Below, piece by piece: positions 16,355-64,000 of a stretch of 64,000 nucleotides of DNA (within the stretch, counting starts at the first letter, position 1; each line of letters begins with the position of its first letter). The position numbers and the translations under genes were made by a program. Source of the DNA: Escherichia phage Bp4. The notes beneath the pieces are model-generated. The model saw only the letters and a program-made list of their open reading frames with translations. It had not been told where the DNA came from and did not search any database. Location of the stretch: sequence record NC_024142.2. One strand, 5' to 3'.

Positions 16355-19300
16355 TTGAACAGGAAACATGCTATGTCAACATTTGACCGTCTGGCAGGTT
16401 TCGCAGACAGCATCACTAATGCTAAGCAAGTCGATGTCTCTACTGCAACCTCTCAGAAGCAAGCTGCACAAGGGCAAAGCCCTTTCCAATTAACCCCAGA
16501 GAATGCTTACAATCTCCAGACTGGACGAGTAGGTAATCTTGGAATCGGTGCATTCGAACCAGGTTCACTTCAGGCAGATTTCACTCAAGCCTCCCCATTA
16601 GAAATCATTAATAAGTACGGTAATGAGCAAGGTTTACAAATTCTTAATAGCCGAGCTAATGCTGCTGATGTTGTACGTCAGGACTTATCTAAACAACGTA
16701 CTAACGCAGAAGCATTTGGCGATACTCTTTCTGGTGTTGGTCTTGGTGTTGCTAATACCCTTGGGGGCATTGCTGCTCTTGGTACAGGCTTGGTCAATGA
16801 TAATGCCGGGGCATCCATTGCTTCCGGTCTTGACTGGTTGAATAAAGGTGTACACAACCTACAGTCTGATGCACTGAATGCTCGTCGTAATGTAGTACAG
16901 AACCAGAACGTAATATCTGCTCAAGAGAATGAGAAACTCTATAAGCAAGATATTGCTAAAGGAGAAAGTGAACTCGTTGCTTCTCTGTCTCGTATTGGAC
17001 GAGATGCCTATGATTCTGTTGCTAACACCCTGTCTAATGACATGGCTGCTACAGATGGCCTGGCTGAAGGTGTTGGTTCATTCTTTACTGGCGGTCCACT
17101 TATCCGTGGTGTATCTGCACTTGGTAAAGTAATGGTAGGTGGTGATAAAGCTGTTAAGGGTATTACCTTAGCTGCTGAATTAGGTTATCGTCCTGCACGT
17201 ATTGCACAGACTGCTGGTCGTGTTGCTGCACCTGCTATAGCAATTGGTGGTATGGAAGCTGGTGGTGCATACCAACAGACTGCTAATGAAATTATGGAAA
17301 TGCCATTCAGTGAACTGGCTGCTAAATCTCCTGTATACCAACAGCATATTAAAGACGGTCTGTCTCCTGAAGAAGCACGTCGCCAGACTGCATCTGAAAC
17401 AGGTATCACTGCTGCTGGCTTAACTGCTCCAGTTGCTGCTCTTACTGCTCCACTGGTATCCAAGTTTGAACTTAACCCACTTAAGGTAGGTTCACTGGCT
17501 GGTGCTGGTTCTAACATGCTGCGTGAGACTGTAGAAGAAGGTATCCAGTCTGGTACAAGTCAGTTTGCACAAAACAAGGCAATTCAGGGCAATGTAGATG
17601 CTGAGCGTGATTTGCTTAAAGGTGTGGGTGAACAAACTGGTCTGGGTGCATTGTATGGCTTCGGTTCTGCTGGAGTTGCTCAAGCTCCTGGTGCAACTGT
17701 TAAGGCTGCTGGTGCTGCCGTTGGTCCTGCTGTACGTACTACCCTGGCTGGTGCTTCTTTGGCTGGTAAGGCACTAGCAAAAGTAGCTTCACCTATTACT
17801 AACATCCTGGTTCAACGTGGGGAAGAAGTTGCTAAGCGTAATGAACAAGCATCCCCCGTATCTGATGCTACGGTTAACGCTGCTGCACAAGAAGCTACTG
17901 CTCAGGCAGAACAAGCTCAAGCAACTGTTCAGGAAGCAGTGGATGCAATGGATATTTCTCCAGAAGAGAAAGCTGCTGCTACCCAGTATGCTGCTGACTT
18001 AACTCAGGCAATGAAGTTTGACCCGGTAGAATTGGAACAAACTAACCCAGCAATCCGTGAAGCTGTTTCTGGTTCCACTAACCGTGTAGAAGCTATTCAG
18101 AAGATGGCTGACTTGGTTAATACTGCCGAAGACCCTAACGTTCAAATGGAAGCTGCAATCCAGATGTATGACAATATCATGTCTATGGATAGCTTCATTA
18201 ACCGTGACCCGGGTGCTTTGGCTAATCTGGAACAAGGTTCCCCTGCTGCTGCAATCGTAGACCAATTCTCCGGCCTGATGGCTAACGTACAGAATACCCC
18301 TAAAGTACTCCGTGCATTTCGTGCCATCCATTCCATGATTCAGGAACAGGCTGAAGCGGGTAAGCTGAAAGCTACTGAAGAAGCTAATCAAGCCCAAGCA
18401 AACAACATTGCTATGGCTGCTGATGTATCTCCAGAAGTGCTGGATGCAGATTCAGTGAACATGGTTCTGAAACATGCAAGTGAAGGTAAGATTACACTGG
18501 GGAATCGTCAACGTGCTGCCCTGCAATCTGCTGCTGCCTTATTACAGGGTGCACGAGAGTTCGACGCTAAAGCAGAAGAACTAGGCTTACGTCCTCAAGA
18601 TATTGTTAGTAAACAGATTAAAACCGATGAGTCTCGTTCTAATGAAGGACAGTACTCTGCGTTGCAACATGCGAAACGCATTCGTTCTGCGTATAACTCT
18701 GGTAACTTCGATTTGGCCTCCGCTTATCTGAGCGATTTTATGAAGTTCGCCCAGCACATGCAGAATAAGGTCGGAGCGTTGAATGAGCATCTGATTTCGG
18801 GGAATGCGGATAAGAATAAGTCTGTTCATTATCAGGCTCTCTCGCCTTCCCGTGAATGGGTACGTAGTCGTACTGGCCTCGGTGTCAATCCTTACGATAC
18901 CAAGTCTGTTAAGTTTGCCCAGCAAGTAGCACTGGAAGCTAAGACCGTAGCTGACATTGCTAACGCACTTGCTACGGCTTACCCGGAGCTTAATGTTTCT
19001 CATGTGAAAGTTACCTCGTTGGATTCACGTCTGAACAAGCCAGCTGCCCAGGTAGTTAAAGAGTTCCGTCAAGGTGGTCTTGATGCCACTCAGTCTCAAC
19101 AGACTAATGAACCAGTGAATCAGGTTGATGAAACTCCTGCACTAGTGCAAGAGGACACCACTACTGTACAGCCTAAAGATAAACTAGTGGTAGAAAATAA
19201 GACTGCTCCTACTAAAGAGACTAGTCCAAAAGCAGAAGAAGTCTCTACTACTGAATCTGAAAGAGATGCTTATGTGAAAGAAAATACTATTTCACAGGAA

Positions 19301-22300
19301 ATTCTTAATAAGAATGGTGACCGTAGAGAAAGCCCTTGGTTGTTTGCTGATGGTACTGTGGTTGGTTCTAATGGCGACCATATCAGCCTGTCCGACGTAT
19401 TTGGGCATGATGGTTATCGTGATATGTCTCTGGATACTGGTGCTATTCGCTCTACCTTCTATAAAGGTAGTGAGCAACCATTTGTATCTCTGCAACTGTT
19501 TGATAATCAGAAACTGACTGCTGAACAATTCAATACTGTTCAATCTTTCGTTGAAGCAAACAATGCACTGATTCAGGTTGGTGTAGATACGTCTGGGCGT
19601 AATACCAATAATGTTGAGAAGGAAGAAGTATCACTAGCTCAACTGAAAGCAGACTATACCGTCGGTGGTAAACCTCTATCGGAAATGGAAACAGTGTTCC
19701 CTGTTTATAACAATGACAAGACACCGAACCAGTTCATTAAATCATTCTCTCTTCCAGAAGAACCTAAGTCTCGTACCATTGGTTCCGAATCTCCTTTGAC
19801 TGATGTTAAGAAAGCACTGTCTTCTGCTGCTCGCTTTGAAGCATTTACTCAAAAAGAAAATAACGCTCTCACAAGTGATGTGATTAAGCGTTACCAGGAC
19901 TTATTTGAGTTTGGTGAAACTCTGAAGACTACTCTGTCTGACCGTCTGGCTAAGTTCCTTGCTAACAAGAACGTTGGTAAACGTTTTGCGGAAGGTACTG
20001 AGGCTAACCGTTGGGTAGGTGGTAAGTTACTTAACATCGTAGAGAAAGATGGTGACACCTTTAAGTTCAATGACCAGCTATTAGAAACTGCTGTACTTGC
20101 TGGTCTGCAATGGCGATTGACTGCTACACAGAATGCTGCTGTTAAAGACATGAAAGACGTAGCTGCTATTACTGGTGTGGAAGCATCTCTGCTACCAGAA
20201 GGTATTCTGGCTGACTTCGAGAATGCTCAGACCCTGGTTGAAGCTACTAACTCACTAGCTCAAAAGATTGAATCCTATTGGGGTTTGAATCGTAATCCTA
20301 ATGCACCTTTGGGGTATACCAAGGGTATCCCAATGGCAATGGCTACAGAGATTCTGTCTTCCCTTATTGAGATGGGTGAAGTTAAAGAGTCCATGTTAGA
20401 TGTGTCTGAGATTGACCCAGAATCTAATAAGACTGTTGGTCTGTATACCATTGAGAAGCTGGATGATAACGATGCCATTAATAAATTCCCTACTGCTATT
20501 GAGGAAACTGTCCTTTTAGAACCAGTAGAGAAATTGTATCTGGGTGATGACATTCCTTCCGTGGCTCAAACTCAGTTACGTAACCCGGCTGTTAAGAATA
20601 CCCCGGAACAGAAAGCTGCTCTCAAAGCAGAACAAGCTACTGAGTTTCGTGTACATATGCCGATGGTTAATTTCTATGAAGCATTGGGTCGTGACAACAT
20701 TCTGGAGTTAATGGGTGCTGGTGCTCTTAATCCAGAATTGCTGAATGTGAATACTGCTAAGTCTCTGGAAGGTAAAAACCTGTCCGTGTCCATGGCGTAT
20801 GATTCCTTGTTTGGTGTAATCAATCAAATTAAGGAACAGGAGAATGGACTGGATACACCTATTCACTATGGCTACAACATGACCCGTGTAGGTCGTATGC
20901 AGATGCTTGGTAAGAACAACCCACAGTCCAGCAAACTGGTACGTGAAGCAATCTTACCAACCTTCTCTACCATCGACTTGAGTAATGAAAACAGTCAAAC
21001 GTTCTCTGACTTCCAGTTAGGTCTGGCTCAGGCATTGGGCATCAAAGTTCATAAAATGTCCCGTGAAGTTATGTCGGATGAGCTGACTAAAGCTCTGGAA
21101 GGTAAATTGAAACCTGCCGTTGATATGATGGTCGAGTTTGATAAGTCTGGTCACTTACCTGCTGATGCAGTGGATATTCTGAAGACTTCCTTGGGGAATG
21201 ATAAATCATTCGTAGCTCTTATGGCCCTGATGGAATATGCCCGTTACCTGAATAGTGATGATCGTGCCAACTTTAATACCCCACTGTACGTTGAAGCCGA
21301 TGGTGTAACCAATGGACCAATTAACGCAATGGTATTAATGACTGGTGGTAAGTTTACTTCAGACTGGATTAAGAATACTGCTAAGGGTGGTTTGTTCTTT
21401 GGTAAAGCTGGCAAGACTATGAACGAACACCATTCGCACGAGGATAGTGTTGACCTGTATGAAGCATCCACTAATAGTCTGCAACAGGCACTGAATGAAT
21501 TACGTAATAATTACCGTAACAACGTTCCTGTTACGAATCAGATGAAGCATCTTCAGAAGTTAATGGACCTGTTCATTAAAGACTTCAATCTTAATGAAGA
21601 TGGTACTCTGGACCTGAAACGTGGTATCGCTAAAAACCCACTGACCATTACCATCTATGGTTCTGGTGCTCGTGGTATTGCTGGCAAAATGGTAAGTGCA
21701 ATTACTGATACCATCTACGAACGCTTCAGTGACGTTCTACAAGCCCGTGCTGCTGACCCTAGCATTTCCCCAGCTATGGCTATGTTTGGTAAGGAGGCTG
21801 CGTCTGAGGCTGATGCTCAGGCTATGCTGGATACTTTCCTTACTTCTATGGAAGCACTAACTGGTAATGTTCCGGTTATGCGTAAAGGTGAGTTGTCTAT
21901 TCAGCAGGTAGATGGTGCTCTGACTGGTAAGTTAGACCCTCAGAAGTTTACTGTATCCGGTAATGCTCTGAAGAACTTACAAGAGAACATGCTTCATCTG
22001 TTCGTTGAACCAATGCGTACTGGTATCCGAAATACCGTGGGTGAAGGTCTGATGTACTCTACTGAGAACTTGCAGAAAGCTACCCAGATTCAATCTCTGG
22101 TTCTGCAAGACATGTTCCAGCAACGTGTTCAGGAGAAACTGGCAGAAAAAGAAAAAGACCCAACATGGAAGAAGGGTGATTTCTTAACACAGAAAGAACT
22201 GAATGAAATCCAGGCTTCATTATCTCCACTGGCTCCAATGATTGAGACTGGTTCACAGACTTTCTACATTGCTGGTAGTGAGAATACTGATGTTGCTAAC

Positions 22301-25300
22301 CAAGTATTGGCTACCAACTTAGATGACCGTATGCGTGTGCCAATGAGCATCTATGCTCCTTCACAGGCAGGTGTAGCAGGTATTCCATTTATGACCATCG
22401 GTACAGGTGATGGCATGATGATGCAGACCCTTTCTACTATGAAAGGTGCTCCGAAGAATACCCTGAAAATCTTTGATGGTATGAACATTGGTATTAATGA
22501 CATTACTGATGCAAGCCGTAAAGCTAATGAGGCTGTATATACTTCCTGGCAGGGTAACCCTATCAAGAATGTTTATGACTCCTTTGCTAAGTTCATGAAG
22601 AACGTAGACTTCAGCAAACTGTCTGATGAAACCAAACAAGCTATCGCTAAATCTGCACTGGAATACGACCAACGTGAGGGTGCTACTGATGACCTGTTAC
22701 GTGTTGGTGCTGAACAGATTGAACGTAATCTGCGTAACATTGCTCTGGGTGTGGATATTCGTCATAAGGTAATGGACCAGGTACAGGTCACTGTTGACCA
22801 GATGGCTGCTGTTGGTGCTCCTTATGTGAACAACGGTAAAATCTCTCTGGAAGGTCTGACTGTAGACCAGCAAGTAGCTAAGCTGAACGAACTGTTTGAT
22901 GCTGAATTAAACAAGCGTCGTGATGCAGTACGTGCTGCTAAAGCAGAACCAGTGAAAGAAGTGCCAGCAATGGAACAGGTCGGTCGTGTACTGAAGTCTG
23001 GTGTACGTCTGCTGTCTAATGCTGCCATTACTAAACTGGCTAAAGAGATGTCCCCTGAACAACAAGCAGTACTGAAAGAAATACAGAAATCTCTTGCTGC
23101 TAAAGACTATAAGGTTGTTTATGGTACGCCTTCTCAACTGGATGCCTATGCTATTGAGAAGAACATTACTCGTCCAGCACCGGAAGATATTGAAGCTGCT
23201 GAAGCAGGTAATGCATATGGCTGGACTAACTTTGAAGATAAAACCATCTACTTAGTTACCCCTTCCTTAGAGACTCTGGTTCATGAATTGGTACATGCCT
23301 CTACTTTTGAATCTGTACTAGCTCACTACGAGGGTACTCCTAACGAAGCAGTCCAGAATATTGAAGACCTGATGAACCAGTTCCGTGCTCTTGATGTTAA
23401 GAATGAATCTCCGGCAGTACGTGAAGCATATGCCGATGCACTCAATACCATTAATGGCCACTTGTCCAATGGCTTTATTGAACCAGCAATGGCTAAAGCT
23501 GCTGCACTGAATGAGTACATGGCTTGGGGTTTAACTAACCGTGAACTTATAAGTAAGCAGAAGAAAACCACTGCACTTAAAACTATGGTTCAGGCTGTAT
23601 ATGAAGCAATCAAACGTCTGGTATTCGGACGTAAGAAAGCTCCTGCTAATGCAGATGATATGTTCTCTGGCTTACTGTTTAACTCTGCTGTAGTAATGCG
23701 TGGGCAGGCTCCTACTGCTGCTGTAGCCAAAGATACTACCTTGTTCCATAACAAAGCATACGGTGACAATACTCGTCTGGAAGAGCTAGGGAAAACCTTC
23801 GATAAGCTGATTACTAACTACATTGGTTCAGAACCAGTACAGCAAGTAATTCGTAAAGGTAAGTTCTCTGATGCAGTAGTAAAAGCAACTAAAGTAACTC
23901 GTGATGTTCAGGCTCATGGCTTCACCATGAATATGCAGGAACAGCGTCTCTTCACTAACATTGTTGCTGCACTAGCTACTGAGGCTGCTATTAACCCTGC
24001 TGCTATGGCTCGTGCACAGGAATACTACACGCATGTTACTAAGAACCTGACTGTTGAAGCGTTCATGGCTGACCCGGATAGTACTAACCCTGCTGACCGT
24101 TACTATGCACAGCAGAAGTTCGATACCATCATGGGTGCTAATAACATTGAGTTTGATGCACAGGGTCGTTCTTCCTTACTACCTACCTTTGTTGGTCTGG
24201 TAATGGTAAGTGAAGAAGTACGTAAGGTGCTGGCTGATATTTCTGTTATGAAAGCAGATAAAAAATCTGGCAATACTGTTGATGCAATGCTGACTAACAT
24301 CGGTACTGCTGCAATGGCTAGTCTGAATGCTCGTGTAGCAGGTGATACTAAAGCCACTAACGTACAGGAAGGTATGGATGCACTGGCTCAGACAATCATG
24401 CAGACCAGTCTTAACGCAGAATCCTTCTATGATTCCGTTGCTACTCCTACCGGTAATGCTATCGACCGTGCTAACCAGTATTTGGTGGACTCTATTGATG
24501 CATTGTCTACCCGTGCTTTAGAAGGTGCTCGTGAAGTTGCAGCTAATACCAAGAATCCATTGGTCAAAGGTGCTGCTCATGCTGCACAACTGGTAGCTGC
24601 TATTGCTACAGAGAAGAATGGTGCAATCGTAGCCGAAGGTGTTATGGCTGCAATGAACCAGGGTAAAGTATGGCAACCTTTCCATGACCTGGTTAATGAC
24701 ATAATTGGACGTACTAAGAGCAATGCTTCTGTATATGATTTGATTAAAGCAGTACGAGCACAAGTGCAGGCTGACCGTCAACAGTTCCGTGAACACTTGC
24801 CTACCACTATCGCATCCAAGTTCAGCCGTAAACTGACTAATGATGAGTGGAAAGCAATGCATACCGGTATGGGTAAAACTGACTTAGCTGTTCTGCGTGA
24901 CACTATGTCTTTGGATGAAATCCGTGACCTGCTGACTGACCAGAAGAATGTTGACCGTGAGGTTAATAAACTGGAAGCAGATTTGCAGAAACAAGCAGGA
25001 CGTAACTGGCCCCTGATTAACCGTAAATCTAAGCAACTGGCTCAGTATATGATTAACGGTACAGTCGGTAATAACCTGCTGCGTAATGCTACTGCAATTT
25101 CTCGTTTACTGGGTGAACGTAAGACTACACGTTCTGTTGTAGATGTAGCTCAGCTGGATAAACTGATTACCCTGTATGCACTGGAAGCAATGAGTAAGAC
25201 TGACCGTGAGGTGTTATCTTCACTGGCTCAGACAGAAGTTGAAGGCATGGACTTTGCTACTTCTTACCTGGTTGGTCAGCGTAAAGACGAAATGGCTAAA

Positions 25301-27085
25301 GCCAAGTCTGATAGCCGTGCAACCTTGAACCAGTACAAAGGATACATCCCAACTGAGAACAAACAGGGTGTTAACCTGATTGTTGCTGAAGATAATCAGT
25401 TTGCTGATTTGATTGAGAAATCCTATGTACGTCTTGGTACTTATCAGGGTAGCTCTGCTAACCGGGGTCCAGCACGTAGTTACTACTTTGCACCGGTACA
25501 GGCACAGGCTCCGTTCTCACAAGGTATCCTACAGAACGTTCGAAATACTGCTGGTGGTGTAGACCTTGGTACAGGCTTTACGATGGGAACCATGGTAGCT
25601 GGTCGTATTACTGACAAGCCTTCCGTAGACCGTATCACTAAAGCACTGGCTCGTGGTGAACGTGGCAATGAACCACTGCTGCCTGTATATGATGCTAATG
25701 GTAATGTAGTTGCTTATGAGCAATCTATTGACCCTAACATGCTGAAGCACATTGAGGGTGAGAATCATCTTGCTCGTGCAATCGGTGTATGGCGTGGTCG
25801 TCAGGTGGAAGAAGCTAAGGCTCAGCGTTTCAACGATATGCTAATTGAGAACCTGCATAGCATGTATGAGAACGACATTAAGATGTCTGCTTCTAATAAG
25901 TCCCAGTACGTTAACCTTCTTGGTTCTAAACTGGACCCAGTAACTGCCGATGCCCTTAAGCTGATGAACAGTGAAACTCGTCAGAAAGCAGAAAGTCTCT
26001 TTGGTCCAGGTGAATTGTGGGTGCGTCGTGACATGCTTAATGATGCTCTGGGTTATCGTGCAGCTTCTGTAGGAGATGCCTGGTCTGGTAATTCTCGTTG
26101 GTCACCAGAAACACTGGATACCTTCAAGAAAGCTATGTTGGGTGTATTCGGCAACCGTGCCTATAAGTATGTAATGGGTGGTGAGAACCTGGTTCAGAAC
26201 TTAGTTAAAGAAGCTAAGACCCTGATTGTAGTTAAGTCAGTAGTTGTACCTGCTGTTAACTTCCTGGCTAACCTTTACCAGATGGTTGCTCGTGGTGTAC
26301 CTGTTAAGAACATTGCTAAGAGCATCCCACAAAAAACTGCTGAGATTAACCAGTATCTGAAATCTCGTCTGCGTCAGGTAGATGCAGAAGCAGAATTACG
26401 TGCAGCTACTAACCCGAACCAGATTCGTAAACTCAAGGCTGAGATTCAGTCCATCTCTGATAGCCATAAACGTTTGAGTATCTGGCCTCTGTTGGAAGCT
26501 GGTGAGTTCTCTTCAATTGCAGATGCTGGTATTGGCCGTGATGACATCCTGATTACTGAAGGTAAACTCCACGAATACATGGAAAAGCTGGCTGATAAGC
26601 TGCCTAAGTCTGTTCGTAACGCAGGTCGCTATGCACTTATCACTAAGGATACTGCTCTCTTCCAGGGTATTCAGAAGACGGTTGAGTACTCTGACTTTAT
26701 TGCTAAAGCAATCATCTATGATGAACTGACTCAGCGTAAAGGTAAGACTCGTGAAGAAGCACTGGGGCGTGTAACGGAAGAGTTCATTAACTATGACCGT
26801 CTGCCTGGTCGATTCCGTGGGTATATGGAAAGTGTTGGTTTGATGTGGTTCTACAACTTTAAGATTCGTTCTGCAAAAGTTGCAGTGTCCATGATTCGTA
26901 ATAACCCAGTACATGCTGCTATGGCTATGTTGGCTCCAACCCCTACCATGTTTGGTAACGTTGGTCTTCCTATTCAGGACAACATCTTTAGTATTGCTGC
27001 ACAAGGCAATCTTGGTTACTCCTTTGGTTTCGGTCAAGGCTTACGTGCCCACAACCTGAACCCTTGGCTCAACCTTACTAACTAA
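16355..27085 (+). CDS. giant virion-encapsidated RNA polymerase (N4 gp50-like vRNAP)
   Basis: Single uninterrupted 3576-aa ORF (10.7 kb). This size is a hallmark of N4-like phages. Last gene of the late operon, followed by a strong terminator. Confidence 0.85.
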   Translation: MNRKHAMSTFDRLAGFADSITNAKQVDVSTATSQKQAAQGQSPFQLTPENAYNLQTGRVGNLGIGAFEPGSLQADFTQASPLEIINKYGNEQGLQILNSRANAADVVRQDLSKQRTNAEAFGDTLSGVGLGVANTLGGIAALGTGLVNDNAGASIASGLDWLNKGVHNLQSDALNARRNVVQNQNVISAQENEKLYKQDIAKGESELVASLSRIGRDAYDSVANTLSNDMAATDGLAEGVGSFFTGGPLIRGVSALGKVMVGGDKAVKGITLAAELGYRPARIAQTAGRVAAPAIAIGGMEAGGAYQQTANEIMEMPFSELAAKSPVYQQHIKDGLSPEEARRQTASETGITAAGLTAPVAALTAPLVSKFELNPLKVGSLAGAGSNMLRETVEEGIQSGTSQFAQNKAIQGNVDAERDLLKGVGEQTGLGALYGFGSAGVAQAPGATVKAAGAAVGPAVRTTLAGASLAGKALAKVASPITNILVQRGEEVAKRNEQASPVSDATVNAAAQEATAQAEQAQATVQEAVDAMDISPEEKAAATQYAADLTQAMKFDPVELEQTNPAIREAVSGSTNRVEAIQKMADLVNTAEDPNVQMEAAIQMYDNIMSMDSFINRDPGALANLEQGSPAAAIVDQFSGLMANVQNTPKVLRAFRAIHSMIQEQAEAGKLKATEEANQAQANNIAMAADVSPEVLDADSVNMVLKHASEGKITLGNRQRAALQSAAALLQGAREFDAKAEELGLRPQDIVSKQIKTDESRSNEGQYSALQHAKRIRSAYNSGNFDLASAYLSDFMKFAQHMQNKVGALNEHLISGNADKNKSVHYQALSPSREWVRSRTGLGVNPYDTKSVKFAQQVALEAKTVADIANALATAYPELNVSHVKVTSLDSRLNKPAAQVVKEFRQGGLDATQSQQTNEPVNQVDETPALVQEDTTTVQPKDKLVVENKTAPTKETSPKAEEVSTTESERDAYVKENTISQEILNKNGDRRESPWLFADGTVVGSNGDHISLSDVFGHDGYRDMSLDTGAIRSTFYKGSEQPFVSLQLFDNQKLTAEQFNTVQSFVEANNALIQVGVDTSGRNTNNVEKEEVSLAQLKADYTVGGKPLSEMETVFPVYNNDKTPNQFIKSFSLPEEPKSRTIGSESPLTDVKKALSSAARFEAFTQKENNALTSDVIKRYQDLFEFGETLKTTLSDRLAKFLANKNVGKRFAEGTEANRWVGGKLLNIVEKDGDTFKFNDQLLETAVLAGLQWRLTATQNAAVKDMKDVAAITGVEASLLPEGILADFENAQTLVEATNSLAQKIESYWGLNRNPNAPLGYTKGIPMAMATEILSSLIEMGEVKESMLDVSEIDPESNKTVGLYTIEKLDDNDAINKFPTAIEETVLLEPVEKLYLGDDIPSVAQTQLRNPAVKNTPEQKAALKAEQATEFRVHMPMVNFYEALGRDNILELMGAGALNPELLNVNTAKSLEGKNLSVSMAYDSLFGVINQIKEQENGLDTPIHYGYNMTRVGRMQMLGKNNPQSSKLVREAILPTFSTIDLSNENSQTFSDFQLGLAQALGIKVHKMSREVMSDELTKALEGKLKPAVDMMVEFDKSGHLPADAVDILKTSLGNDKSFVALMALMEYARYLNSDDRANFNTPLYVEADGVTNGPINAMVLMTGGKFTSDWIKNTAKGGLFFGKAGKTMNEHHSHEDSVDLYEASTNSLQQALNELRNNYRNNVPVTNQMKHLQKLMDLFIKDFNLNEDGTLDLKRGIAKNPLTITIYGSGARGIAGKMVSAITDTIYERFSDVLQARAADPSISPAMAMFGKEAASEADAQAMLDTFLTSMEALTGNVPVMRKGELSIQQVDGALTGKLDPQKFTVSGNALKNLQENMLHLFVEPMRTGIRNTVGEGLMYSTENLQKATQIQSLVLQDMFQQRVQEKLAEKEKDPTWKKGDFLTQKELNEIQASLSPLAPMIETGSQTFYIAGSENTDVANQVLATNLDDRMRVPMSIYAPSQAGVAGIPFMTIGTGDGMMMQTLSTMKGAPKNTLKIFDGMNIGINDITDASRKANEAVYTSWQGNPIKNVYDSFAKFMKNVDFSKLSDETKQAIAKSALEYDQREGATDDLLRVGAEQIERNLRNIALGVDIRHKVMDQVQVTVDQMAAVGAPYVNNGKISLEGLTVDQQVAKLNELFDAELNKRRDAVRAAKAEPVKEVPAMEQVGRVLKSGVRLLSNAAITKLAKEMSPEQQAVLKEIQKSLAAKDYKVVYGTPSQLDAYAIEKNITRPAPEDIEAAEAGNAYGWTNFEDKTIYLVTPSLETLVHELVHASTFESVLAHYEGTPNEAVQNIEDLMNQFRALDVKNESPAVREAYADALNTINGHLSNGFIEPAMAKAAALNEYMAWGLTNRELISKQKKTTALKTMVQAVYEAIKRLVFGRKKAPANADDMFSGLLFNSAVVMRGQAPTAAVAKDTTLFHNKAYGDNTRLEELGKTFDKLITNYIGSEPVQQVIRKGKFSDAVVKATKVTRDVQAHGFTMNMQEQRLFTNIVAALATEAAINPAAMARAQEYYTHVTKNLTVEAFMADPDSTNPADRYYAQQKFDTIMGANNIEFDAQGRSSLLPTFVGLVMVSEEVRKVLADISVMKADKKSGNTVDAMLTNIGTAAMASLNARVAGDTKATNVQEGMDALAQTIMQTSLNAESFYDSVATPTGNAIDRANQYLVDSIDALSTRALEGAREVAANTKNPLVKGAAHAAQLVAAIATEKNGAIVAEGVMAAMNQGKVWQPFHDLVNDIIGRTKSNASVYDLIKAVRAQVQADRQQFREHLPTTIASKFSRKLTNDEWKAMHTGMGKTDLAVLRDTMSLDEIRDLLTDQKNVDREVNKLEADLQKQAGRNWPLINRKSKQLAQYMINGTVGNNLLRNATAISRLLGERKTTRSVVDVAQLDKLITLYALEAMSKTDREVLSSLAQTEVEGMDFATSYLVGQRKDEMAKAKSDSRATLNQYKGYIPTENKQGVNLIVAEDNQFADLIEKSYVRLGTYQGSSANRGPARSYYFAPVQAQAPFSQGILQNVRNTAGGVDLGTGFTMGTMVAGRITDKPSVDRITKALARGERGNEPLLPVYDANGNVVAYEQSIDPNMLKHIEGENHLARAIGVWRGRQVEEAKAQRFNDMLIENLHSMYENDIKMSASNKSQYVNLLGSKLDPVTADALKLMNSETRQKAESLFGPGELWVRRDMLNDALGYRAASVGDAWSGNSRWSPETLDTFKKAMLGVFGNRAYKYVMGGENLVQNLVKEAKTLIVVKSVVVPAVNFLANLYQMVARGVPVKNIAKSIPQKTAEINQYLKSRLRQVDAEAELRAATNPNQIRKLKAEIQSISDSHKRLSIWPLLEAGEFSSIADAGIGRDDILITEGKLHEYMEKLADKLPKSVRNAGRYALITKDTALFQGIQKTVEYSDFIAKAIIYDELTQRKGKTREEALGRVTEEFINYDRLPGRFRGYMESVGLMWFYNFKIRSAKVAVSMIRNNPVHAAMAMLAPTPTMFGNVGLPIQDNIFSIAAQGNLGYSFGFGQGLRAHNLNPWLNLTN

Positions 27086-30903: not shown

Positions 30904-30904
30904 G

Positions 30905-48313: not shown

Positions 48314-48318
48314 TAGGT

Positions 48319-55802: not shown

Positions 55803-55844
55803 GGGTTTTATTTCAGGGTTTATAACCCCAAACAAAGGATACTC

Positions 55845-56723: not shown

Positions 56724-56727
56724 GTAA

Positions 56728-56756
56728 AAAATAAACCCTCCGTTAGGAGGGTTAGT
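56728..56756 (-). terminator. intrinsic terminator (minus-strand sense)
   Basis: Hairpin AACCCTCC-GTTA-GGAGGGTT followed on the minus strand by TATTTTTT. Confidence 0.5.
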
Positions 56757-56967: not shown

Positions 56968-56991
56968 TCCCGAAGGAATGAGGCTAGTTTA

Positions 56992-58239
56992 TTAACTCAA
57001 CGCATAGTCTGTTTCAAGAATGTCCTGCCAGAGGCTGTCATCCAGCTTACCAGCAGAGAACTCTTGCCCCAGTACCTGAGACAGGATGAAGCCCAGTAGG
57101 TCACTCTTAGCAATATCAGACAGGATCTGATTGTACTGACGACGCAGGTCATTACCGTAGTTAGGATGGCAACGGAAGCAGTCATGTACAGTCATTACAG
57201 GGAATGGTTTCTTAGGCAGAGTGTCAATCATATCTGCTACTACCTGACGGTCTACATAAGCAATAGTACATGGGTCAAGATAGTCCAGGATGGATAAAGA
57301 TAAGAAGCCAGACTTCTCATAATGGCTCCATAGCTCTTGTACCTTCTCCAGATTACCTGCAATCTCCCCATATTCTGATGGACCTTCATCACAGAGTTCT
57401 CGCACAGCTTCCACTAAGTCACGGTCGAAGTTACAACGACGCAGCATCTCACGTACCACCATCCCATCAATAGAGTGGGTGATGTTAGCAGAGAGCATAC
57501 GAGTCTTCTCTTCAGTACCCTGAACCATACGAGTAATGTCGAACGGTTTGCCTAAGAAGTTAACAGTCTGTACTTCTGGAACCATGACCTTAATGACAGC
57601 GTGGAAGTTGTCAGGAAGTATCCATATGTAACGGTTGGCATCTGGATTACCACATTGCAGTAAGAACTTGTTCAATGCCCAAGGACCACTAGCAACAGTT
57701 TCCATTACATTCTCAAAAGTCTTGAGACGAATACCTTCACCGAATACTTCTTTAGGCTTGGCTTCTGAGCCGTAGAACGCAGTCATAACTGCCTGCTTAG
57801 TGTCACTACGTTTAATACGAGATGCTTCACCAAGGATGTCCAACATCTTGTGATAGATGACTGTATAAGCATCACGACGTAATGGCTTACCATTCTCACC
57901 CATGTAATTAACTACGTTACACAGTTCAGCAGCAGAGCGGTCACCCGTCAGACAAGCCAGTAATTGCAAGCCAGATGATGTAGCATCCAGAGCTACGGCA
58001 TAACCAATAGGCTTACCTGCTTTCATATCTTTCCATGCATTTACACCAGCATAGAACAGTGCAGAATCTTCAGCTTCATCTACCAGATTAAGCAGGTTAG
58101 CTTCGTTCTCATCGAACCAGGCAATACGCTCATCCCATGTCTTTTTATCCAGACCATAGTTATTGGCGATATCTACTTTCAGGTATTGTTTAGCGGTTAA
58201 CAGTTGCATTTTATGTTCCTTTTGCTTCTTGCTCCCCAC
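56992..58239 (-). CDS. phage RNA polymerase II large subunit (T7-like single-subunit RNAP catalytic half, N4 gp16-like)
   Basis: T7-like motifs: ALDATSSGLQLLA (motif A), RSDTKQAVMTAFYGS (motif B), TVHDCFRCH (motif C). Confidence 0.8.
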   Translation of the reverse strand: MGSKKQKEHKMQLLTAKQYLKVDIANNYGLDKKTWDERIAWFDENEANLLNLVDEAEDSALFYAGVNAWKDMKAGKPIGYAVALDATSSGLQLLACLTGDRSAAELCNVVNYMGENGKPLRRDAYTVIYHKMLDILGEASRIKRSDTKQAVMTAFYGSEAKPKEVFGEGIRLKTFENVMETVASGPWALNKFLLQCGNPDANRYIWILPDNFHAVIKVMVPEVQTVNFLGKPFDITRMVQGTEEKTRMLSANITHSIDGMVVREMLRRCNFDRDLVEAVRELCDEGPSEYGEIAGNLEKVQELWSHYEKSGFLSLSILDYLDPCTIAYVDRQVVADMIDTLPKKPFPVMTVHDCFRCHPNYGNDLRRQYNQILSDIAKSDLLGFILSQVLGQEFSAGKLDDSLWQDILETDYALS

Positions 58240-58415
58240 TATGGAGAGCCTGCTTATTGGATGGTTAGGCAGTTACTACGTCGGCAGATAGTTTATAAAT
58301 AATGGTTTTACTCTCAGGGTTTTGAAGCTTGTAAAGCTTCTCAAAGTATAAGCACTTCACATATGTACCTGAGTAGACACACTCTTCATTAACCCATAAT
58401 TCATAGGAGCCAATG

Positions 58416-59234
58416 TTAGTCTTCATTTACTAACTCCTTATCAGCGAACTCCAGTACAGCTTTGTTGTAGCTGGTTCCCTGATAGTTGATGTGGTAGCCA
58501 CAGGCATATGTACGCCCACGTTTGTCATATTTGTGAGCCAGTGAGAAGTTATTACCTTCCTTGGTCACTAACTCCATTACCTCTTTAGCTGTACGGCTGT
58601 ACTTTTCAAAGGCTTTAACACGTTTCTCATAGTCCTGACGGGTTTCACCTTCTTTGGGTTTATCCATGTTAGGACGAGAGTCTTTTACATAGTTAGCAAC
58701 GTCCCAGTTAATACAGAGACGTTGGTTATTCATACGGTTAATGTGGTCAAGACAGACATCCATTTCATGATGGTTCTTCTTGAGAATGATGCTACCCCTG
58801 CTTTCGTAGTAACCAGTATCACGGTTACATAGAACAGGCTTAGGAGCACTTACGATAGGCAATGGATACTGGAATGCTTCCAGTTCCATCTGTACATCTT
58901 CACTAATCTCATAAATAACACCGAACTTGTCGATGGTAGGGTCATAGTTGAAGCAGTCATTCTCTGCCATCTTATACAGACAGTCAGCGATGTACTGAGC
59001 ATCATCTGAGTGACTCATGAGAGAGCCAATCATAGTTTGGATGTCAGCACGTTTATGTAGGGCAATCTGCACCATTGCATCAATGAGCAGCTTATAATCA
59101 ATTTCTAAATAGGCAGCGAATGCCTTAAAGTCAATTTCTTCGGAGTCCTCGAATTCCTTCCTCATGCGAGGGAGTAATTGATTCTTGTTGAAAAGGATTT
59201 CAAGTTGCTTCTGATGTTCAATAGATGAGTACAT
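58416..59234 (-). CDS. phage RNA polymerase II small subunit (N-terminal half of split T7-like RNAP, N4 gp15-like)
   Basis: 272 aa directly upstream of the catalytic subunit; the split arrangement is characteristic of N4 RNAP II. Confidence 0.65.
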   Translation of the reverse strand: MYSSIEHQKQLEILFNKNQLLPRMRKEFEDSEEIDFKAFAAYLEIDYKLLIDAMVQIALHKRADIQTMIGSLMSHSDDAQYIADCLYKMAENDCFNYDPTIDKFGVIYEISEDVQMELEAFQYPLPIVSAPKPVLCNRDTGYYESRGSIILKKNHHEMDVCLDHINRMNNQRLCINWDVANYVKDSRPNMDKPKEGETRQDYEKRVKAFEKYSRTAKEVMELVTKEGNNFSLAHKYDKRGRTYACGYHINYQGTSYNKAVLEFADKELVNED

Positions 59235-59267
59235 CGCTTATTCTCCTAAATGTGATTAATAACCAAA

Positions 59268-59282
59268 AGCTGCGGAGCAGCT
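59268..59282 (-). promoter_or_regulatory. hairpin promoter candidate (N4 vRNAP-type), template-strand hairpin AGCTGC-GGA-GCAGCT
   Basis: 6-bp stem, 3-nt GGA loop on the plus (template) strand, about 35 nt upstream of the RNAP II small subunit start; shares the GCGGAGC core with two other hairpins. Confidence 0.45.
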
Positions 59283-59287
59283 ATTAC

Positions 59288-59548
59288 CTAACGCTTAGTC
59301 CAAAAGGCAATACGAATACTGTTCTCTTGACCAAGATAGTTAATACGTACATATAATCCATTACCATTAAATTCTTTTCTTTTTTCTTGATAAGGCCATA
59401 CCAGACTACGCATAGGTATATTAACAAAACCTGATATGTGACCTAACTTAGTACGACCTTTTAGTTCGTTTTGTAATGCACAATAGATATCATGTCGTGT
59501 AAGTGCTCTGGCTCTGACTTGAGCAGACCACAGTTCTTCATATGTCAT
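59288..59548 (-). CDS. hypothetical early protein
   Basis: 86-aa ORF. Confidence 0.4.
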   Translation of the reverse strand: MTYEELWSAQVRARALTRHDIYCALQNELKGRTKLGHISGFVNIPMRSLVWPYQEKRKEFNGNGLYVRINYLGQENSIRIAFWTKR

Positions 59549-59934
59549 GAGAAGGTTCCCCAGTAGATATAGTCATCTCCCAGAATAGGCTTCCAGGCTT
59601 CGTCAAACATGACATTGCCTGTAGCATTGGCAAACATAGGAGCAATATCTTCATCCTTATAACCAGCTAATCCACAACCAATACGTGTTACTTTAAAGTC
59701 CCACTCTGGGTGGGCTGCTGCGTATAGAATGAAGGATGCTACGAATGTCTTAATGTCCTTTAACGGCATAGTCTTGATTGACTGGTCTTTGGTTGGGATT
59801 GCATAGCTGCAACCATAATGGCCTACGCCCATACCCCAACGAGCACCATGCTTCTTATATGCAACTTTCGCTGCACCAGCGCCGTGACGTCCTGCTAAAT
59901 TACTTCCGAATACGAAGATTTCTTTCATTTGCAC
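59545..59934 (-). CDS. hypothetical protein with Gly-rich nucleotide-binding-like motif
   Basis: FVFGSNLAGRHGAGAAKVA and GCSYAIPTKD motifs; 129 aa. Confidence 0.4.
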   Translation of the reverse strand: MQMKEIFVFGSNLAGRHGAGAAKVAYKKHGARWGMGVGHYGCSYAIPTKDQSIKTMPLKDIKTFVASFILYAAAHPEWDFKVTRIGCGLAGYKDEDIAPMFANATGNVMFDEAWKPILGDDYIYWGTFS

Positions 59935-60105
59935 AATTTCCTGTTGTAGTTGTAAGCCTCTTGTTGAGTCATACTTGTATTAGCATGAGTTAGCTCCAAA
60001 TACGTCAGAGCATATTCATGTCACGCTGTTCCTTCTTGGTTCGGCAATGACCACATTTACCATCCCATTGGGATACATGGCCTTTACCACATTTGCATTG
60101 TTTGT

Positions 60106-60369
60106 TCATTTAAAAGTACTCCATGGTATGGACTCCAAGTAATTAATTTTGTAAATAATCTTACTTCTTATTTCTCCACCAACATCTTGTACATGGATTA
60201 GGTTTAACCTTTGTGCTTGGGTTATAGTAGCTGCAAGAGTTCTCCCCATAATATTTGATATTTCTATAAAAGATTTATTGGATTCTACTAGTATCTTTAA
60301 ATTAGTATTATCTAAGTTACTCCACTCTTTAGAATGATTTGCTGGCTTATCCATTAGGATTCTCCACAA
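60106..60369 (-). CDS. hypothetical early protein
   Basis: 87-aa ORF. Confidence 0.4.
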   Translation of the reverse strand: MWRILMDKPANHSKEWSNLDNTNLKILVESNKSFIEISNIMGRTLAATITQAQRLNLIHVQDVGGEIRSKIIYKINYLESIPWSTFK

Positions 60370-60727
60370 AATAGTTATACATAGCTTTTACTAGTTTCTC
60401 TTTAATAACCTCACCATGACAAGGTTTCGGATAACAGAAGCACTGTAAGGCTAACCCTTTTTCGTCAATGGCTTTATTACCCAGACGATTAAGTTCATCC
60501 AGTACAACTGGATTCTTTCTCATTATTTGCTCATTAAGCCATACTCGATACTTGGCTATAACCTGTTCTCTTGAACCGTCTTTACCAATAACGAATGGAT
60601 TGCCTAATGGTGAGCCACGTCCAATATACTCACCGGATTTACCGTGATGTTTATTAACAATGTTAATTGGACGGGCAGATACACCTAGTAAAGCATTGGT
60701 GTCATCACCTAAAGAGATAATCTTCAT
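60347..60727 (-). CDS. hypothetical protein (DUF4326-like motif pattern)
   Basis: GRGSPLGNPF and CFCYPKPCHGE motifs; 126 aa. Confidence 0.4.
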   Translation of the reverse strand: MKIISLGDDTNALLGVSARPINIVNKHHGKSGEYIGRGSPLGNPFVIGKDGSREQVIAKYRVWLNEQIMRKNPVVLDELNRLGNKAIDEKGLALQCFCYPKPCHGEVIKEKLVKAMYNYFVENPNG

Positions 60728-61038
60728 GGTTTAAGTACCTGGAATGGGAATACAGGACGTTTACTACGCCACTGGTTCATAGCTAATTCACTAGTTTCAG
60801 AACCATCATGTAAGTCATAGATAAATGAGATTACATAGTCTGGTTCTTCCGGGAAGTTCTCTATAGAGAACGGTAGACCTGATTCTTTAAGGATGGTAAC
60901 CAGTGGTGATTCAGCATTACAGTAAAGGGTAAACTCTTCATTGAATGCTTGGCTTGTCTGAGATACATAATCAATATTACGCATCATCTTATCTACATCA
61001 GTAAACGTAGAATCATGGATTACTAGAATAGTTTTCAT
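60724..61038 (-). CDS. hypothetical early protein
   Basis: 104-aa ORF; overlapping start/stop with neighbours. Confidence 0.4.
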   Translation of the reverse strand: MKTILVIHDSTFTDVDKMMRNIDYVSQTSQAFNEEFTLYCNAESPLVTILKESGLPFSIENFPEEPDYVISFIYDLHDGSETSELAMNQWRSKRPVFPFQVLKP

Positions 61039-61226
61039 ACTGGCTCCCTGCCTGTAAATGCTACTACTTTTCCTGACATATTCCGTAGGGTTACCTGTGC
61101 TGAGTTAACATCAGCAAATTGCTCTGCAACCCAGTTAAGCATCTCAGGGTCATTATTTAATTGTTTGTTAATCACAGTTTTACTGTCTGCTGTTACTAAA
61201 GTGATTTCATAATTTTCAATATTCAT
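61035..61226 (-). CDS. hypothetical small protein
   Basis: 63-aa ORF. Confidence 0.35.
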   Translation of the reverse strand: MNIENYEITLVTADSKTVINKQLNNDPEMLNWVAEQFADVNSAQVTLRNMSGKVVAFTGREPV

Positions 61227-61480
61227 GCTACTTTCTCCAGCGTTAGGTAAACGTTATTATTGACAATACTCAAATCACAAAAACCAATCTCTTCTTGTCT
61301 CCCAGAGGATACCCAGATATTGTTTTCTGTTAGCTTAGGTTTTTTAGAGAATCCTATTAGTGAGGTATTAGCACTCTTATATTGACGAGGTAGTAATGCT
61401 ATATACTTAACCCAGTGAGGCACTTGAATAGTATGCTTCATATATTCCACAGTCTTGCCTGTAGGATATGCAATAATCAT
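61223..61480 (-). CDS. hypothetical early protein
   Basis: 85-aa ORF. Confidence 0.4.
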   Translation of the reverse strand: MIIAYPTGKTVEYMKHTIQVPHWVKYIALLPRQYKSANTSLIGFSKKPKLTENNIWVSSGRQEEIGFCDLSIVNNNVYLTLEKVA

Positions 61481-61698
61481 TTCTGATACCCCTGTATATA
61501 GTTAATACGGCGAATACGTTGAGTAGATGCTTTAACAGCCATCTGTTGATTCTCTTCTTTATGCTGATTATTCAGCACCTTATCCCATTCTTTCTGATTC
61601 CGTTGTTTCTGTAATATACGACTACACTTCTTATGATTAGCAACTCCTCTTCCTTTATTGCAAATTGGGCAAATACCATAATTAGTGCTGAACAACAT
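61477..61698 (-). CDS. small zinc-ribbon-like protein
   Basis: CPICNKGRGVANHKKC Cys pattern; 73 aa. Confidence 0.4.
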   Translation of the reverse strand: MLFSTNYGICPICNKGRGVANHKKCSRILQKQRNQKEWDKVLNNQHKEENQQMAVKASTQRIRRINYIQGYQK

Positions 61699-61703
61699 TT
61701 TGT

Positions 61704-61934
61704 TTATTCCTTAGTAATGTGATTGGCAGTATAGAAGTCATTAATCTCTGATTGGGTAGTATCAGCATAACCGGATACACCGGTTTCTTTATTAACCCAT
61801 TTATCGAAGCACTCACTGTGTCCATGTGTACTAACTTTTACCCATGTACTGGTTCCAAAGAATGTTTTTTTCTCTACTTCTGCACCAATACCACGTTCAT
61901 TATCTGCAAAGCGTATTACCTTATATTTAGCCAT
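61704..61934 (-). CDS. hypothetical early protein
   Basis: 76-aa ORF. Confidence 0.4.
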   Translation of the reverse strand: MAKYKVIRFADNERGIGAEVEKKTFFGTSTWVKVSTHGHSECFDKWVNKETGVSGYADTTQSEINDFYTANHITKE

Positions 61935-62235
61935 TTAATGCCTCCATTAATATTTTACGAATAACGTTAACATCAGACTCTGTACCAATTAAGCCAACAG
62001 GCTTGCCTGTACTATCTGTTACAAAGGATGCAATCCTTTCCATCTCTGCTGTAATTAGTTTGTCCCCACTAATAAGACGATTACGGAGGTAAGCTTCATA
62101 AGCTACCTCTACATCTTCTACTGTGGTTCTTTCATTACGAGTGAATGGATTACTTAATTGAAAGGGTAAGTGGATACGGATATTCCTGTCAGCTATCTTA
62201 GCTGATTGAGGAAGTATACAAACAATTTCATTCAA
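61927..62235 (-). CDS. hypothetical early protein
   Basis: 102-aa ORF. Confidence 0.4.
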   Translation of the reverse strand: MNEIVCILPQSAKIADRNIRIHLPFQLSNPFTRNERTTVEDVEVAYEAYLRNRLISGDKLITAEMERIASFVTDSTGKPVGLIGTESDVNVIRKILMEALNG

Positions 62236-62426
62236 GGTTATTTCTCCTATTTAAATACATATCTAACTATTCAGGAATAAAAAATAGAAGCCCTCCTAAT
62301 GGAGGACTCCTAGTTACTTGATACATGAATGGTTGAAGGTAACAATCTTACGTACTGGTTCAGACGTCTGTTTCTTAGCAACCAGACGTTCTTTCATCTT
62401 TTGCACGTCTTCTCTGGTTCCCATGA

Positions 62427-62609
62427 TTAATGATTTACGCATGATTTAGTACTCCACATAAAGTTAAAAGGTTTATTCTTACGTACAATTCTTACAACCA
62501 TTTGATAGCCATTGAGTTGTACAACACCATAGTGTCGTTTCTGTACACCAGTGTGATACCTACGAAAGATACATTCTTCAATGGCATCATCTATGTTAGT
62601 GAATATCAC
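62427..62609 (-). CDS. hypothetical small protein
   Basis: 60-aa ORF. Confidence 0.3.
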   Translation of the reverse strand: MIFTNIDDAIEECIFRRYHTGVQKRHYGVVQLNGYQMVVRIVRKNKPFNFMWSTKSCVNH

Positions 62610-62794
62610 TGGTTCCTCTTTGCAAACTCTTCTGCTTGTTGCTTGTAGTACTGAGTCATTGCTTTCTTGTGTTTAATACTAGCAATGAGACACTCGATAG
62701 TAACGAATGGCAGTTTAGCAATAAGCAACCATTTATGACGTAACTTCCAACCCAGAAAGTAGAAGATTACACAGAAAGCGATGAAGTCTAACAT
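62606..62794 (-). CDS. small membrane protein
   Basis: 62 aa with hydrophobic helix. Confidence 0.35.
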   Translation of the reverse strand: MLDFIAFCVIFYFLGWKLRHKWLLIAKLPFVTIECLIASIKHKKAMTQYYKQQAEEFAKRNQ

Positions 62795-62896
62795 GGTTAA
62801 TTCCTCTTCTAATATAAATCTATATCTATCTGGTTACTGTTTCAGTACCCTTCGTCTAAAGATACTCAAAAAGTAGAAATAGCTTATCGTCTAGTT

Positions 62897-62926
62897 AAAA
62901 ATAAAAGACTCCCCGAAGGGAGTCTA
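62897..62926 (-). terminator. intrinsic terminator (minus-strand sense)
   Basis: Hairpin AGACTCCC-CGAA-GGGAGTCT followed on the minus strand by TTTTATTTTT. Confidence 0.55.
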
Positions 62927-62934
62927 TTGGTTGA

Positions 62935-63408
62935 TTAGAAAGTCAGTTTACGAGCATATTTATTCTCGTCTGCTGGGATGTCAGCAGCCTCTGCTTTCAC
63001 ACGACGAAGTTGAACTTGCAGGTTTATGATACCTTCTTCACCTGGTTCCAGGTTCTGAGCATACTCAATTAACTGTTCCAGCAAGTCGTTCTGTGCACAA
63101 CGCATAGCACGGAAGTCAGCATTGCTGCTGTTAGTAGGCAGCGGTTCCTGAGTATCCAGTGGAATACCAGTAGGCAGAGAGATGAATTTCTCATCATCAG
63201 AGCCTTCATTAGCTACATAACCAATGTTCAACCAGAACTGAGCTTTTGGTTTATCAGTTTTAGCAGTGGTAGCAGCAGCGTTAGATTGACCGAAAGTGAA
63301 TTTTTGAATAGCCATTTTGTACTCTCCAGATTTATGTGATTTACGGGTGAACTCGTCGGTGAGAACACCCAAACAAAGGGATAAAAGTTCAATGATTAGT
63401 GGATGCAT
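62935..63408 (-). CDS. hypothetical early protein
   Basis: 157-aa ORF starting about 15 nt downstream of a hairpin promoter candidate. Confidence 0.45.
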
Positions 63409-63421
63409 TTACATCATCCAT

Positions 63422-63438
63422 AAGACGCGGAGCGTCTT
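63422..63438 (-). promoter_or_regulatory. hairpin promoter candidate (N4 vRNAP-type), AAGACGC-GGA-GCGTCTT
   Basis: 7-bp stem with 3-nt GGA loop on the template (plus) strand, immediately upstream of the gene starting at 63408. Confidence 0.5.
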
Positions 63439-63533
63439 GGTTTTTAGAAGTAGAAGTAAAGTAGATAGTTATCTACTTTTGACTATCTATCTAATGTTCA
63501 AAACAGGAGACTCCGAAGAGCCTCCCAGGTGAC

Positions 63534-63857
63534 TTAGTCTTTAGTCAGGATGTCGATTACTTTGGAATATTCTGCGTTATAGATACGAGCGTTCTCTGAA
63601 TCCTTGCAGAATTCCTCGATACTTTTCTTACGCAGAGTCTCAGTCATAGCTGTTTCCTCTGCCAGTTTATTAACAAAGGTATGCATTTCTAATTTAGTAC
63701 GAATGGCTTGTTTCTCTGCCATAGTACTTACATATGAATTAAGCATACCTACTGCTTTAGTTGCTGTACCGAAGGTATCTGCAACAGTAGTAGCAGCTGA
63801 GTTAACAGTACCAAGTAAAGTTCCTGCGGTCATACGTACAGTAGCTTGAGTAGTCAT
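63534..63857 (-). CDS. hypothetical early protein
   Basis: 107-aa ORF, Ala/Thr-rich helical protein. Confidence 0.4.
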   Translation of the reverse strand: MTTQATVRMTAGTLLGTVNSAATTVADTFGTATKAVGMLNSYVSTMAEKQAIRTKLEMHTFVNKLAEETAMTETLRKKSIEEFCKDSENARIYNAEYSKVIDILTKD

Positions 63858-63899
63858 GATGATAGCTCCAATAGTTGATGATAGGACGACATGTCCATA

Positions 63900-63914
63900 A
63901 CATGCGGAGCATGT
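63900..63914 (-). promoter_or_regulatory. hairpin promoter candidate (N4 vRNAP-type), ACATGC-GGA-GCATGT
   Basis: 6-bp stem, GGA loop, same GCGGAGC core; about 45 nt upstream of the gene starting at 63857. Confidence 0.45.
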
Positions 63915-64000
63915 GTAACGTGTAAGGTGGGGTAGGGTAGTGGCTACACCGTCAACATACCGGGGGGGATGGTTGAGTGTAAGGGTGTAGCCCCAGCCAC

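Follow-up and report, generated by a model that had tools for sequence, protein, structure and literature searches.

Three short perfect palindromes that share a GGA loop lie near one edge of the Escherichia phage Bp4 sequence analyzed here (NC_024142.2; 64,000 nucleotides, referred to as the window), each just upstream of a minus-strand gene start. The question raised by this locus is whether they are early promoters, that is, DNA hairpins from which the virion RNA polymerase (vRNAP) of an N4-like phage initiates, as a first-pass annotation made from the sequence had proposed, or whether they are better explained as RNA-level terminators, as other single-stranded DNA signals, or as chance repeats. 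The palindromes claimed at 59268, 63422, and 63900 match exactly in sequence at these coordinates. With the loop center set to −11, they and their predicted starts are as follows.

63900..63914, plus strand: P1 hairpin, ACATGC-GGA-GCATGT, 6-bp stem, loop center (−11) at 63907; predicted +1 at template C 63896, +2 C at 63895; leader of 39 nt, including the Shine-Dalgarno sequence GGAG, to the gp1 homologue
63422..63438, plus strand: P2 hairpin, AAGACGC-GGA-GCGTCTT, 7-bp stem, loop center at 63430; predicted +1 at template C 63419; 11-nt leader to the gp2 homologue
59268..59282, plus strand: P3 hairpin, AGCTGC-GGA-GCAGCT, 6-bp stem, loop center at 59275; predicted +1 at template C 59264; leader of 30 nt, including the Shine-Dalgarno sequence GGAG, to the gp15 homologue

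All three are intergenic, lie on the same strand, and are confined to the final 4.8 kb of the window. The minus-strand starts that had been assigned to them (59234, 63408, and 63857) are genuine ATGs of open reading frames, and their distances to the hairpin edges upstream are 34, 14, and 43 nt, respectively. The GGA of P1, P2, and P3 is always on the plus strand, i.e., on the template of the adjoining minus-strand early genes, so that the placement of the loop on the template strand holds as claimed. The loop is indeed fixed among the copies, and the description of a fixed closing pair needs only to be widened, as two pairs (GC...GC) rather than one are constant. Around this constant core the stem differs, as had been noted, through compensatory changes both between the copies and between phages.

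The minus strand of window positions 59000 to 64000 matched positions 1 to 5001 of Escherichia phage PD38 (MH669274.1) with 100.0% identity over its full length in a megablast search. PD38 is classified as Schitoviridae, Enquatrovirinae, Gamaleyavirus Bp4, and the window runs as the reverse complement of that phage or of a near-identical one, with the early left end of the genome at its right edge. The match pairs 5,000 window bases with 5,001 record bases, implying an indel of at least 1 nt; record position 1 corresponds to window position 63999, and window base 64000 lies beyond the record. Measured from record position 1, P1 lies at a distance of ∼90 nt, P2 of ∼570 nt, and P3 of ∼4,730 nt in a record of 72,213 nt.

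Hairpin promoters of this kind have been studied genetically, biochemically, and structurally in N4 for four decades (Haynes and Rothman-Denes 1985, Glucksmann 1992, Davydova 2007, and Gleghorn 2008, reviewed in PMC4496689). There, P1 to P3 were mapped as vRNAP starts in vivo and in vitro and crystallized with mini-vRNAP (PMC4496689), and early transcription in vivo needs DNA gyrase and the host single-stranded DNA-binding protein (SSB) and is resistant to rifampicin. The N4 determinants are a GC-rich heptamer centered at −11 with inverted repeats on both sides, in which the loop-closing C:G pair and the 5′ G and 3′ A within the loop must be present for extrusion and stability; vRNAP specifically recognizes −11A/G, −10G, −8G, and +1C, initiation takes place eight nucleotides downstream of −8, and stem bases outside the conserved set are free as long as pairing persists (PMC4496689). 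P1, P2, and P3 of the window each carry −8G, −9C, −10G, −11G, −12A, −13G, and −14C, together with template C at +1 and +2 and an A/T-rich spacer from −1 to −4. All three thus combine a stem of 5 to 7 bp and a template-strand loop of 3 nt with the heptamer and with the −11 purine, −10G, −8G, and +1C that were set experimentally in N4. A relaxed scan for C-GNA-G hairpins, including imperfect ones, covered the 72-kb genome in full on both strands (the window plus the remaining 8 kb taken from PD38) and found no further site with −8G and +1C.

The GCGNAGC sequence is an extraordinarily stable DNA mini-hairpin made of two G:C pairs and a sheared G:A pair, with a melting temperature of 76.5 °C for GCGAAGC, and a review of such structures names the N4 GCGGAGC promoter as a natural example (PMC13037366); the N4 structure likewise has a sheared −10G:−12A pair. 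It is because GCGGAGC is such an exceptionally stable mini-hairpin that so short an inverted repeat can extrude. As described by Hirao and colleagues, d(GCGNAGC) defines a structural motif rather than a promoter class (PMC13037366), whereas the GCGGAGC of the window is a mini-hairpin set in a longer stem that would act together with +1C and a specific polymerase. Nearest-neighbor DNA folding gave modest stabilities of −4.4 to −7.0 kcal/mol (z scores of −1.1 to −4.5), with similar values for template and nontemplate strands; it fails to separate the strands because its parameters omit the sheared G:A mini-hairpin and triloop. The template-strand asymmetry would accordingly rest on the published N4 experiments, with folding neither backing nor opposing it.

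We located the N4 promoters in the first 9 kb of EF056009, where the template strand carries P1 at 90-102 (GTTGC-GAA-GCAAC, upstream of gp1), P2 at 557-573 (AAGAAGC-GGA-GCTTCTT, upstream of gp2), and P3 at 4546-4562 (AAGCTGC-GGA-GCAGCTT, upstream of gp15). The window has the same arrangement, its three sites lying at the far left of the genome ahead of homologues of the same three genes.

63534..63857, minus strand: gp1 homologue, 107 amino acids, the first early gene, after P1; 67% identical to N4 gp1 from residue 1
62935..63408, minus strand: gp2 homologue, 157 amino acids, after P2; 68% identical to N4 gp2 from residue 1
58416..59234, minus strand: gp15 homologue, 272 amino acids, after P3; 65% identical to N4 gp15

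N4 gp2 acts as an RNAPII cofactor (PMC4496689), and the gp15 homologue is the small subunit of this heterodimeric middle RNA polymerase. Both phages share the GCG(G/A)AGC heptamer at −11, the 5- to 7-bp stem, −8G, −10G, and +1C, and a 4-nt A/T-rich spacer. Relative to N4, the stem of P2 is changed by one compensatory pair (A:T to C:G), the stem of P3 is the same minus one pair, and P1 has a GGA instead of a GAA loop and an ACATGC instead of a GTTGC stem. The spacer of P1 and P2 is ATAA in the window but AAAA in N4, and the leaders are 39, 11, and 30 nt long compared with 47, 10, and 38 nt when computed alike in N4. Judged by sequence and gene order, P1, P2, and P3 are the positional orthologues of N4 P1, P2, and P3.

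The start of the gp2 homologue, MHPLIIELL, aligns with MHPILYEIL of N4 gp2 from Met1, and with this longer start the leader of P2 is only 11 nt, similar to the 10 nt of N4. The GenBank record of PD38 places the beginning of the gp2 coding sequence (record positions 685-1065) 31 codons further downstream and labels it "RNA polymerase RNAP1 subunit A." When aligned with N4 gp2, this deposited entry therefore looks N-terminally truncated and misnamed.

The window also encodes the polymerase that such promoters would require.

16355..27085, plus strand: vRNAP, 3,576 amino acids; 67% identity to N4 gp50 overall and 71% in the mini-vRNAP domain

This protein, together with the Gamaleyavirus affinity, bears out the view that the DNA comes from an N4-like phage. 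Its central domain matches PDB entries 3C2P, 3C3L, 2PO4, and 3Q0A at ∼1,700 bits, a cluster that includes the promoter complex 3C3L. We converted mini-vRNAP to full-length numbering with an offset of 997, under which N4 shows the expected residue at every position. All five base-contact residues of N4 mini-vRNAP (K114, R119, W129, D901, and R904) are kept in the window vRNAP, as are the backbone-contact residues K849 and K850 and, in addition, K268. The sole promoter-contact residue that is changed is K267, which is N in the window vRNAP (residue 1358); in N4, K267 belongs to the β-intercalating hairpin, and together with a second lysine it melts the two lowest pairs in the 7-bp stem of P2. 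The vRNAP is thus predicted, on the basis of its conserved contact residues, to be the enzyme that reads the three hairpins. It belongs to the same family as the T7-type single-subunit RNA polymerases and has a homologous specificity loop, β-intercalating hairpin, and upstream recognition element. However, T7 promoters are double-stranded and 23 bp long, while promoters of the P1-to-P3 type consist of single-stranded hairpins and depend on supercoiling and SSB.

Related hairpins have been described in other phages. Klebsiella phage KP8, from a sister genus in the same subfamily Enquatrovirinae, shows the core as GC-TCC-GC on the nontemplate strand (PMC6950046, Table 1), and its P2, AAGACGCTCCGCGTCTTATGGA (PMC6950046), is identical to window positions 63438-63417 read on the minus strand. 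Four putative promoters, P1 to P4, identical or nearly so in sequence to the window sites, were listed for KP8 (PMC6950046) compared with three here, both sets being predictions. The early regions of the Pseudomonas N4-like phages LUZ7, LIT1, and PEV2 and of Pectobacterium phage CB1 likewise contain template-strand hairpins with a 3-nt loop and an initiating G, although their stems are 4 to 5 bp long and of other sequences (PMC3715699, PMC9163698, PMC6027278). In LUZ7, whose hairpin early promoters were confirmed by cappable-seq, the start lies 13 to 14 nt from the hairpin center, in comparison with 11 nt in N4 and, as predicted, at the window sites. Cappable-seq identified nine early starts in LUZ7, some of them without hairpins, and by analogy the three promoters reported here may be an undercount. 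The recognition of three hairpin promoters by inspection is routine in papers on N4-like phages, e.g., for LUZ7, LIT1, and PEV2 or for Pectobacterium phages CB1, CB3, and CB4. In the library searched, descriptions of early promoters of G7C and Gamaleyavirus were limited to the KP8 paper, and no 5′-end mapping or in vitro transcription data for Gamaleyavirus turned up; the records of PD38 and PhAPEC7 carry no annotated promoter features. Hairpin promoters are thus already known biology, and these sites are simply unannotated in the PD38 and PhAPEC7 records.

To gain an idea about the conservation of the sites, we collected relatives from IMG/VR by searching with a gp15 alignment that included N4 gp15. 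This yielded 16 loci of 55 to 99% identity, N4 among them; a single gp15 protein query had returned only 8 close loci, so that the alignment doubled the count. Each full-length early region contains three to four template-strand GC-G(G/A)A-GC hairpins, all of them upstream of gp15, and the P1 hairpin is identical in 6 related loci. The most distant locus (L028, GC content of 55%) has one canonical site, and its other template-strand hairpins carry TAA and GAG loops. Across 36 distinct sites, including those of the window, +2 is C in 36 of 36 and +1 is C in 35 of 36, although neither position was used in the selection. The spacer is A or T at −1 in 35 and at −3 in all 36 sites, and A at −4 in 31.

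The stem positions vary by exchange of whole pairs and are never unpaired in these 36 sites: the pair −7/−15 is T:A in 19, C:G in 11, and A:T in 6; the pair −6/−16 is A:T in 17, C:G in 13, and G:C and T:A in 3 each; and the pair −5/−17 is G:C in 32, C:G in 3, and A:T in 1. The covariation score was 0.482 compared with 0.120 in shuffles, a score reached in none of 500 shuffles, and partners slid out of register scored at most 0.120. Since this set was picked as hairpins with stems of at least 5 bp, the score is partly circular, and a separate test selected sites on the 7-mer alone. There, 48 of 49 GCGRAGC occurrences on the template strand upstream of gp15 are flanked by at least three further stem pairs, compared with 1 of 13 elsewhere.

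Some relatives contain four canonical hairpins (sites of note are L016:509, L019:2090/2346, L021:3163/3594, and L026:970/1233), and PhAPEC7 has an open reading frame without an N4 counterpart between gp1 and gp2, roughly at the position of the extra promoter in these relatives. The same stem variants (ACATGC, GTTGC, GGCTGC, AGAAGC, and CAACGC) recur at different positions across phages. Mini-hairpins with a GAA loop were also seen, in tandem on the nontemplate strand at L019:2451 and 2467 (GTCGC-GAA-GCGAC and ACCATAC-GAA-GTATGGT) and immediately upstream of P1 at L015:1812 (GACGAAC-GAA-GTTCGTC); these three lack the −8G/+1C promoter signature.

Taken together, P1 to P3 are very probably functional vRNAP early promoters orthologous to N4 P1 to P3, with starts predicted from sequence. 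The anatomy of the sites, their nonrandomness, their orthology and covariation, and the retention of the enzyme's contact residues are established, while initiation at the predicted positions and dependence on gyrase and SSB are inferred by analogy with N4.

Hairpins ahead of genes could instead act in the RNA, as intrinsic terminators or attenuators whose position upstream of genes is incidental. Indeed, a consensus terminator scan flagged two of the sites: P2 on the plus strand, with GGTTTTTAG after the hairpin, and P3 on the minus strand, with TTTGGTTATT after it; an RNA copy of P3 could reach −11 kcal/mol on folding and has four U's next to it. However, the coding (minus) strand of P1 and P2 has no U-tract, there are no plus-strand genes here for P2 to stop, and P1, ∼90 nt from the genome end, has nothing upstream. 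P2 appears terminator-like on the plus strand because of a TGGTTTT(T) tract directly 3′ of the hairpin on the template strand (63439-63446, approximately −20 to −26), and the T-rich tail of P3 is simply the A-rich spacer (−1 to −4) read on the other strand. The TGGTTTT(T) tract is present next to P2-type hairpins in most relatives (with equivalents in L015, L017, L018, L020, L021, and L024 to L026) and absent from N4. A terminator, moreover, has no need of an invariant GGA loop, of −8G, or of a CC 8 to 9 nt away, yet these are found in 35 to 36 of the 36 sites among relatives. The actual terminators nearby look different, with GC-rich stems of 8 to 9 bp, UUCG loops, and long U-runs, as in the following two.

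63506..63527, minus strand: terminator-like RNA hairpin, 9-bp stem, UUCG loop, followed by UGUUUUG, between the gp1 stop and P2; −17.2 kcal/mol
62906..62925, minus strand: terminator-like RNA hairpin, 8-bp stem, UUCG loop, followed by UUUUAUUUUU, directly past the gp2 stop

The three sites thus do not fit the pattern of Rho-independent terminators, in which a GC-rich RNA stem-loop runs straight into a U-tract on the transcribed strand where a transcription unit ends, and we regard a role as terminators as very improbable. Conceivably, although we consider this unlikely, P3, whose hairpin has a U-rich tail, additionally attenuates read-through from upstream early genes.

The hairpin at 63506..63527 probably ends the P1 transcript. 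Further minus-strand terminator-like hairpins lie at 62285-62312, 56961-56984, and 56734-56753, and the early region has more such hairpins than expected (18 compared with 5.0 ± 2.5); several combine a UUCG-type loop with a U-run and directly follow gp1, gp2, or a later gene of the early or middle class. The terminator-like hairpins of the early region probably mark the ends of early transcription units. Matches to σ70-like promoters are strongly depleted both at 55000-64000 (5, compared with 24.3 ± 4.3 in shuffles) and in the middle region at 30000-49000 (16, compared with 37.9 ± 5.6), which suggests a genome-wide avoidance of strong host RNA polymerase promoters that is strongest in the early region.

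It is equally improbable, in our estimation, that the hairpins are single-stranded DNA signals of another kind, such as a priming site or replication origin, binding sites for gp2 or the phage SSB, or middle promoters bound by RNAPII. Mini-hairpins of the GCGNAGC type do occur at replication and priming signals elsewhere (PMC13037366), gp2 and N4SSB bind single-stranded DNA, and the middle promoters of LUZ7 are hairpins too. Such a role is nevertheless unlikely because the N4 orthologues are mapped vRNAP starts that were crystallized with mini-vRNAP. In addition, N4 RNAPII relies on other motifs, which are sequence specific, and starts preferentially at T, the constant distance of 8 nt between −8G and the +1C/+2C fits the molecular ruler of vRNAP, and the contact residues of vRNAP are kept.

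The genome-wide enrichment scan that the first-pass annotation had proposed as a check came out clearly in favor of a signal at the level of the whole hairpin. The bare 7-mer GCGGAGC is not enriched in the window, with 3 matches compared with 2.15 expected and at least 3 in 30 of 100 shuffles. Hairpins with the GC-GGA-GC core and a perfect stem of at least 5 bp, on the other hand, number 3 in the window compared with a mean of 0.035 in shuffles, and not one of 2,000 dinucleotide-preserving shuffles contained two or more. The significance of the GCGGAGC sites therefore emerges only once the whole hairpin, and not the bare 7-mer, is tested. With any loop sequence allowed, the window contains 113 perfect 3-nt-loop hairpins with stems of at least 5 bp. 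The sole other one with a GGA loop, at 10653-10665 (ATGAT-GGA-ATCAT), was rejected as a candidate, as it has neither the GC core nor −8G nor the closing C:G pair; with 1.76 GGA-loop hairpins of this stem length expected per window, it is consistent with chance. The notion that P1 to P3 are themselves chance palindromes sharing one 7-mer, for which the chance-level frequency of that 7-mer and the abundance of 3-nt-loop hairpins could be invoked, is already refuted by these shuffles and by the conservation, with covariation, of orthologous sites over the 16 loci, N4 included, and its probability is negligible.

If P1 to P3 are vRNAP promoters as in N4, the left genome end would enter the cell first, together with vRNAP, and negative supercoiling by the host gyrase would extrude each short inverted repeat as a cruciform. 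RNA would begin with G opposite the template C, 8 nt past −8G, at 63896, 63419, and 59264, and transcription would proceed leftward on the minus strand from each site. P1 and P2 would thereby supply the RNAPII cofactors gp1 and gp2, and P3 the RNAPII subunits, products that would jointly trigger the middle phase of transcription.

The practical value of these sites lies in annotation, as the predicted starts at 63896, 63419, and 59264 would define the early transcription units of the phage, and the sites indicate that the PD38 record gives gp2 too short a coding sequence. One may further speculate, although we consider it unlikely, that the hairpin promoter is a portable module in the Enquatrovirinae, in which early-gene cassettes move with their own promoter and the sequence and length of the stem tune its strength. 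The 36 sites amount to a natural mutagenesis, in which −14 to −8 and +1/+2 are essentially invariant, −5 to −7 covary with their partners, and −1 to −4 are A/T rich. This pattern is in line with the crystal structure from N4 and could help in designing orthogonal pairs of vRNAP and promoter for transcribing single-stranded DNA.
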